In this document: positions 11,352-11,534 of the stretch, piece after piece | Position numbering within the stretch: the first letter of the stretch is position 1 | Layout: every line of letters begins with the position of its first letter | NCBI GenBank assembly: GCA_038233215.1 | Contig: JBBSML010000009.1 | Span: 12,688-76,687 of the forward strand | Source of the DNA: Candidatus Limnocylindria bacterium | Lineage (GTDB): Bacteria; Chloroflexota; Limnocylindria; QHBO01 | Direction: 5' to 3' | DNA length: 64,000 nt | The notes under the pieces: model-generated | Database searches by the model: none | The model's input: the letters and a program-made list of their open reading frames with translations, nothing else | Told to the model about the DNA's origin: nothing | Program-made: the position numbers and the translations under genes

Positions 11352-11417
11352 GACATCCCGGAACTGCCGGGACATTCGACCCTTTCGACATGACGGACGG
11401 ACGAGCATTATGCGAAC

Positions 11418-11534
11418 ACAATTGAAGAACCGTCGTGCCGGGTTCCTGTAATCCAACGATAACGGGGCTGAAGTAGTGGCACCCCGACATGACGGCTTCG
11501 GGAGAACGCCGGCTCGGAAACGAGCCGGCGTTTT
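11418..11534 (+). ncRNA. Candidate ~117-nt small RNA or riboswitch-like leader
   Basis: Putative promoter TTCGAC(11384)-16nt-CATTAT(11406). Closing stem 11424-11437/11488-11499. Ends in a perfect terminator hairpin. Confidence 0.4.
11505..11534 (+). terminator. Intrinsic terminator
   Basis: Perfect 12-bp stem AACGCCGGCTCG-GAAA-CGAGCCGGCGTT ending in a TTTT run. Confidence 0.8.

Follow-up and report, generated by a model that had tools for sequence, protein, structure and literature searches.

The window, the whole stretch of 64,000 nucleotides of Candidatus Limnocylindria DNA that we analyzed, contains a 318-bp gap between a PRC-barrel gene and a gene for a secreted protein of 290 amino acids (290-aa gene, 11670-12542). 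The initial annotation of this gap had placed a small RNA of about 117 nt between a promoter and a terminator, with a peptide-coding RNA and an OFF-switch leader as alternatives. We compared the gap with its homologues in other genomes, examined its predicted fold, promoter and gene order, and searched for relatives among known RNA classes and for possible targets. The features of the locus are as follows:

9193-10689, minus strand: aldehyde dehydrogenase (ALDH) gene; its best NCBIfam similarity, which lies below the cut-off, is to alpha-ketoglutaric semialdehyde dehydrogenase
10839-11351: PRC-barrel gene (Pfam PF05239)
11356-11383, plus strand: upstream promoter element (-62 to -35), an inverted repeat TCCCGG (11356-61)/CCGGGA (11367-72) followed by CATTCGACCCT
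11406-11411, plus strand: -10 box CATTAT (consensus nAnnAT)
11418-11535, plus strand: small RNA of about 114-118 nt, with its predicted 5' end at A11418 and its 3' end in or after the U run 11531-11534
11418-11429, plus strand: single-stranded 5' tail ACAAUUGAAGAA (consensus ACAAnUGAAgAa), a candidate seed
11430-11442 with 11483-11495, plus strand: stem P1, which encloses a three-way junction (10 of 13 pairs compensatory; 94.6% of alignment cells paired)
11445-49 with 11462-66, plus strand: hairpin P2, CCUGU with ACGGG (5 pairs; 95.6% of cells paired)
11467-11482, plus strand: hairpin P3 and the junction bases AC, GCU-GAAGUAGU-GGC, in which 11467-69 pair with 11478-80 around the loop GAAGUAGU
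11502-11535, plus strand: predicted intrinsic-terminator hairpin of 15 bp (11502-11516 with 11521-11535) with a GAAA loop, U11531-U11534 being absorbed in the base of the stem

The predicted fold of the 118-nt RNA (11418-11535) has an MFE of -61.4 kcal/mol (z = -5.9 against shuffles). Its architecture consists of the 13-bp stem P1, a compact three-way junction that carries a near-invariant GCUGAAGUAGUGGCA hairpin, and the 15-bp terminator hairpin.

To our knowledge, the class Limnocylindria is represented only by metagenome-assembled genomes, and it is among these that homologues of the element were found. By blastn, 22 of 24 same-genus genomes contained the gap (70-82% identity), and none of 16 genomes from other families in the class did. 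A pattern search of the GTDB species representatives with an exact 19-mer from the invariant loop matched 99 stretches, 80 of which were returned as loci, nearly all in MAGs labelled Candidatus Limnocylindria, Chloroflexota or Chloroflexia. A first covariance model, built from 19 same-genus sequences, recognized 74 of these 80 loci over their full length with 46-142 bits; the six that it missed came from other phyla and were discarded as chance matches. We then built a second model from 92 sequences and ran it on 151 genomes of the class, where matches of 66-131 bits were confined to the window's own family (29 of 50 genomes). Within this family the genera differ: none of the nine genomes of genus g16 and two of the eight of genus g14 gave such a match, and in two genomes of RNA-poor genera we found the orthologue of the ALDH locus without the RNA. 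One match of the second model (locus L122) lies in an unpublished genome (G141), on which our conclusions do not depend. Four viral contigs matched the pattern, and the RNA model recognized none of them. Together, these searches indicate an RNA that is present in single copy and kept within one family of uncultured Limnocylindria (Chloroflexota), where about 80 species conserve it, with some genera giving no strong matches. All comparative counts below refer to 77 distinct and oriented homologues in a model-fitted alignment, or to 81 sequences where a MAFFT alignment is named.

We found that the predicted fold is borne out by covariation. Standard pairs filled 95.5% of the cells of the model-fitted alignment, compared with 38-48% when the partners were slid, and compensatory changes occurred in 23 of the 35 pairs; none of 500 shuffles of the 77-sequence alignment reached the observed values. 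The MAFFT alignment, which is blind to structure, recovered P1, P3 and the terminator as well, with 20 of 29 pairs compensatory. Moreover, about 400 of 2680 cells, as summed from the pair-type counts, hold G-U pairs, and since these would be A-C mismatches on the opposite strand, they assign the RNA to the plus strand. We conclude from these comparisons that the element at 11418-11535 is real and that its structure is formed at the RNA level, from the plus strand. The strongest signals come from P1 and the terminator, with species-permutation z-scores of -18 and -18.5, respectively. In the window, P1 spans 13 positions with one C-A mismatch and includes the CCGUCGUG/CAUGACGG pairing that was described initially; the GAAG/CUUC pairs that had been added as its closing stem gained nothing over permuted sequences (mean of -1.9 kcal/mol for native and -2.1 kcal/mol for permuted pairs). 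The terminator, described initially as a 12-bp hairpin with a GAAA loop, is indeed perfect in the window over this core (A11505-G11516 with C11521-U11532), extends to 15 bp and covaries across the 77 homologues, with 12 of 14 pairs compensatory. Its U tract is UUUUC in the window and consists of two to four scattered U in many relatives. A simple consensus scan of the window flagged neither the promoter nor the terminator, the latter because only four T follow the stem. The terminator is probably bidirectional.

The two smaller hairpins behave differently from each other. P2 is a less secure prediction than P1: its changes are mostly one-sided, from G-C to G-U, with a single compensatory case, and its loop varies in both length and sequence. 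By contrast, the three pairs of P3 show no variation among the 77 distinct sequences, an invariance of stem and loop that is partly due to retrieval, as 74 of the loci were fetched by the exact 19-mer. The P3 core was nevertheless identical in 20 loci found by blastn, a search that is blind to the motif, and P3 changes only slightly, to GAAGUGGU or to GAAAUCGU with GGCGC, in the remotest members that the model retrieved. Overall, conservation peaks at the junction, which includes the top of P1, the base of P2, the whole of P3 with its paired bases, and the AC linker, and the distal stems vary with compensation. The 5' tail is conserved too: across the 77 loci ACA is invariant, G occurs at +7 in 71, and A occurs at +8, +9 and +11 in at least 70. 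We found no conserved pairing partner for this tail within the RNA. The sequence UGAAG is present twice, once in the tail and once in the P3 loop.

An all-against-all scan of the alignment columns revealed no further helices or pseudoknots, and alternative or antiterminator pairings reached species-permutation z-scores of only -1.2 to +2.7, compared with those of P1 and the terminator given above. As no covarying pairing connects the structured domain with the arms of the terminator, the RNA has no riboswitch-type expression platform. Other pairings put forward in the initial annotation fared accordingly. The alternative pairing GUGCC/GGCAC showed no covariation and was no more frequent than in shuffled alignments (72.9% of cells versus 73.0% on average after shuffling), and most sequences leave two of the five positions without a partner. 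The inner GGGG/CCCC pairing can form but is uninformative; the partner with which 11485 covaries is 11440, in P1. An 11-bp direct repeat CGACATGACGG (11386 and 11485) is present in the window, but its first copy falls in a variable spacer and was not seen in other loci. Like this repeat and the 13-codon ORF discussed below, the GAAG/CUUC and GUGCC/GGCAC pairings are specific to the window, and we rejected them as features of the RNA.

Upstream of the fold, conservation begins abruptly at the invariant ACAA at 11418. Counted from the first A of ACAA, 67 of the 77 loci have A at -11, 56 have A at -8 and 68 have T at -7, and the spacers on either side of this box are unconserved. The A(-11)/T(-7) arrangement is the geometry of a -10 box, from which we infer a transcription start at A11418. 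The box opens with C or G instead of T, and a -35 box is missing. The initial annotation had combined CATTAT, at a spacing of 16 nt, with TTCGAC at 11384 as the promoter; the former is retained here as the conserved -10 box, whereas the latter lies in the unconserved spacer. In our model, transcription would thus be driven by a -10 box (nAnnAT) that lacks a -35 partner, would begin at A11418 and would stop at the hairpin 11502-11535. Further upstream, at 47-49 nt from the start of ACAA, the upstream element is near-invariant in 75-77 loci (consensus TCCCGG-N5/6-CCGGGACATTCG(C/A)CCCT). No second copy was found in the 2.64-Mb genome at up to one mismatch, and the element remains with the RNA in loci in which a PRC-barrel gene lies between RNA and ALDH gene. 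We predict that it is probably the binding site of a dedicated transcription factor, either an activator or a repressor.

The gene order around the RNA was compared across the same loci. A divergent ALDH gene adjoins the RNA in all 77 oriented loci, the RNA lying downstream of it, with the PRC-barrel gene interposed in 15 of them. The scenario, raised initially, in which the terminator only ends the PRC-barrel mRNA is contradicted by these counts, given that the RNA with its hairpin is found in 77 of 77 loci. In 42 of the 77 loci, the RNA is followed by the co-directional 290-aa gene, at a distance of about 110-350 nt, and by its partner gene for a 424-aa protein. In the other loci (about half), the next gene encodes a convergent lyase of the fumarase/aspartase type, which ends about 0-25 nt from the hairpin. 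This lyase gene is also found in the window, at 13807-15192, beyond the inserted pair of 290-aa and 424-aa genes, and the loci found only by the models follow the same gene-order pattern. From these comparisons, the ancestral order is ALDH (leftward), RNA (rightward) and lyase (leftward). With a convergent gene as the ancestral downstream neighbour, the RNA cannot be the leader of a downstream gene, and across the loci compared it is not tied to any co-directional one. We also observed that the ALDH gene probably starts at a GTG at 10689 (minus strand), after AAGGAG, rather than at the longest-ORF start at 10740, and that it has its own -10 box, TAGAAT (minus strand, 10744-10749), which reads TACAAT or TAGAAT in relatives.

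We next asked how the RNA relates to known classes. A permissive cmscan against Rfam 15 (4227 models) gave no family at its gathering threshold, in line with the initial annotation, which could not assign the region to any riboswitch class. The best of these sub-threshold matches was to the alphaproteobacterial sRNA ar35 (RF02346), which scored 23 bits where 45 are required for membership; its terminator hairpin aligns, but most of the model is deleted, so the RNA is not a member of this family. The other Rfam matches covered the terminator only (E of at least 0.076), and ARAGORN detected no tRNA or tmRNA at the locus. We also rejected 6S RNA, whose rod-like hairpin spans about 150-200 nt around a large central bubble, compared with 118 nt, a three-way junction and a separate terminator here; RF00013 had no match in the genome, with a model whose sensitivity is low (5 of 14 control genomes matched). 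Bacterial SRP RNA was likewise discarded, as RF00169 matches elsewhere in the genome (C56:3181-3280, 78.8 bits). Our literature search returned no published regulatory or small RNA for Limnocylindria, and a broader search returned only older surveys of structured RNAs (2007 and 2010).

Two groups of characterized RNAs offer instructive parallels. The 6C RNA of Actinobacteria (RF01066) is a short, highly structured, single-copy sRNA that acts in trans in high-GC hosts lacking Hfq; it is transcribed from a promoter of its own up to its own terminator, combines covarying stems with loops of strongly conserved sequence, and forms two hairpins with C-rich loops. The RNA described here resembles it as a short, single-copy, structured sRNA with a conserved loop and covarying stems in a host without Hfq, but differs in its three-way junction, its G/A-rich loop and its conserved 5' tail, belongs to another phylum and shows no sequence or model match. 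The other group comprises SreA/SreB of Listeria, EutX of Enterococcus and Rli55 of Listeria, sRNAs that are derived from or controlled by riboswitches with known aptamers (SAM, AdoCbl) and that lie upstream of regulated genes. These share with our RNA a conserved, junction-centred fold directly before an intrinsic terminator (a predicted one in our case) and a short length that would allow action in trans. Here, in contrast, there is no match to a known aptamer and no conserved switching helix, and the ancestral downstream gene is convergent.

Overall, covariation, promoter geometry and gene order support the independent sRNA of about 117 nt that was proposed initially, and on these comparative grounds we describe it as a previously undescribed, lineage-restricted sRNA family that is neither a leader nor a peptide gene. 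The reading that we favor, with slightly better than even confidence, is that of a stand-alone gene for a structured sRNA of about 118 nt that acts as a regulator in trans, most likely by base pairing. Accessible conserved seeds are offered by the 5' tail ACAAnUGAAgAa and the P3 loop, both conserved and unpaired, and the RNA would pair with its targets through the unpaired tail (ACAAnUGAAGAA), the P3 loop, or both, each of which carries UGAAG. Such regulation would need neither Hfq nor CsrA, proteins for which the 96.5%-complete genome gave no match. A conserved and unpaired tail fits a base-pairing seed, but about 20 nt are nearly invariant, paired bases among them, and for these a simple seed is a poorer fit than a protein or ligand that recognizes the RNA.

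This latter observation points to a different use of the same stand-alone RNA, which we regard as possible though clearly less probable: the junction and P3 would form a structured module that binds a protein or small molecule instead of mRNAs, so that the RNA would act by sequestration, as a subunit of a ribonucleoprotein, or as a riboswitch-like sensor in trans. The centring of conservation on the junction with compensated distal stems, as seen in aptamers and protein-binding RNAs, agrees with this, as do the occurrence of UGAAG in both the tail and the P3 loop and a promoter element that is unique in the genome and suggests a dedicated circuit. On the other hand, no partner protein is consistently adjacent, the neighbours being a generic ALDH and a lyase; the RNA lacks an expression platform and resembles no Rfam aptamer; and the retrieval effect noted above accounts for part of the loop invariance. 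Somewhat more tentatively still, the RNA could represent a new stand-alone class, restricted to this uncultured Chloroflexota lineage, whose invariant junction/P3 core binds a metabolite or a dedicated protein, as a sensor in trans or an RNP subunit under the control of a single-site operator. Our order of preference is a regulatory RNA that acts in trans, more likely by base pairing, followed by the binding module.

The search for targets bears on both of these readings. We screened the duplex energies of the RNA with the translation-start regions of 4178 crude gene calls and searched the genome for complements of the loop and tail, and found no conserved target, a result that favors the binding module. 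The start regions of the neighbouring genes (ALDH, lyase, 290-aa and PRC-barrel) paired with the RNA no better than shuffles. Two individual candidates were considered and rejected. The best duplex of the 5' tail (-11.4 kcal/mol) was with a gene for a MalK-type ABC ATPase, between the ribosome-binding site and the AUG, and did not recur in the orthologues of five other genera. The only long complement of the invariant loop, a perfect one of 15 nt, was found at G000 C65:961-975, in the VHYFSP motif of the coding region of a Hanks-type Ser/Thr kinase; however, exact 14-nt pattern matches also occurred in genomes without a match to the RNA model, and their counts equalled those of a reversed-pattern control. 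We attribute the kinase match to conservation of the protein and its codons, the preferred codons coinciding with the loop complement by chance. Two genomes in the 14-nt comparison (G171 and G106) are unpublished and bear solely on this rejected lead.

It is very improbable that the RNA is instead a cis-acting leader, i.e. an OFF switch or attenuator that governs read-through into the 290-aa gene. That gene is co-directional downstream in the window and in the 42 loci mentioned above, and the weak U tract of the hairpin makes some read-through plausible. Nevertheless, gene order already largely refutes such a leader, as the convergent lyase ends at the hairpin in the remaining loci, and covariation of an antiterminator was not found; a riboswitch or attenuating leader of any kind fails on the same two counts. 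In addition, the 290-aa gene, whose start codon at 11670 is the next one after the RNA, has its own signals past the terminator. Its promoter is conserved in the 42 loci across several genera (11548-11579 in the window) and consists of the tandem direct repeat (G/A)TAAGC-N5-(G/A)TAAGC and, 9 nt further on, a -10-like box (TAGGCT here; GAGACT or GACACT elsewhere). The 5' UTR (11631-11669) contains a conserved hairpin, GCCUCC-N8/9-GGAGGC, over the ribosome-binding site. The promoter looks as if it depends on a response regulator. The protein had been labelled a C39 peptidase, a label that rests on motifs and is not supported by Pfam, where the 290-aa sequence had no match even at E up to 10, or by NCBIfam, where it had none either.

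We give comparably little credence to the possibility that there is no separate RNA at all, in which case the hairpin would only terminate the neighbouring genes, in both directions, and the remainder would be DNA conserved as, for example, operator sites. The hairpin does lie at the end of the convergent lyase gene in many loci and follows the PRC-barrel gene in 15, but P1 lies outside it, and the 10 compensatory pairs and many strand-specific G-U pairs of this stem are not explained by constraint at the DNA level; the -10 geometry, moreover, indicates a start at 11418. Least probable of all, and refuted by the comparison of loci, is an mRNA for the 13-residue peptide MRTQLKNRRAGFL (11410-11451), since its ORF, although present in the window and with similar ORFs in close relatives, has an ATG that sits inside the -10 box and upstream of the predicted start, has no ribosome-binding site, lacks a start codon in 30 of 77 loci, varies in peptide length and sequence, is broken in frame by indels, stands at 42-51 nt from the invariant loop with all three residues modulo 3, and shows substitutions that track base pairing and not codon position.

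Taken as a stand-alone sRNA, the element adds a new and well-supported RNA family of about 80 different sequences that covary strongly, whose promoter architecture is defined and whose phylogenetic range is clear. The family can be added to RNA family databases, can be used for annotating Limnocylindria genomes, and offers an entry point to Hfq- and CsrA-independent regulation in this lineage. Binding of a ligand or protein by the invariant core would make the RNA the first of a new class; as an ordinary base-pairing sRNA, it would be a useful but unsurprising addition.

Several further observations were made in the surroundings of the RNA and its homologues. A regulon is hinted at by short blastn matches to the promoter region of the 290-aa gene, which several relatives also carry at a second site. 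The 5' UTR hairpin of this gene is preceded by AACGCCGGCUCG (with one mismatch in the window), which is also the 5' arm of the RNA terminator. Pairing of the 3' arm of the terminator with this copy is possible, but does not covary with changes in the terminator, and we take the sequence to be a shared GC-rich motif. In one relative (L009:1680-1900), about 150 nt are inserted between the terminator of the RNA and the promoter of the 290-aa gene; the insert holds three copies of the palindromic GCCCGATAGATCGGGCC and resembles a small repeat element. Full-length RNA together with an ALDH of the Limnocylindria type was also seen in MAGs labelled Steroidobacteraceae, Angelobacter, Zixiibacteriota and Binatia (L023, L030, L039, L051, L053, L054 and L064); these contigs may be mis-binned, or their records mislabelled. 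Lastly, weak model matches in a sister family of the class were set aside as a different element, which has in common only the type of terminator and differs in gene neighbourhood. In this element (minus strand; L156:1440-1630, L157:1500-1670, L158:1500-1680 and L159:1510-1680), AAAGGAGGTGATGTGCAGTGA comprises a ribosome-binding site and a very short ORF and is followed by a CACCACCUC...GGGUGGUG hairpin and then by the same type of GAACGCCGGUCCGG-loop terminator, an arrangement that may represent a leader-peptide attenuator or another small RNA.
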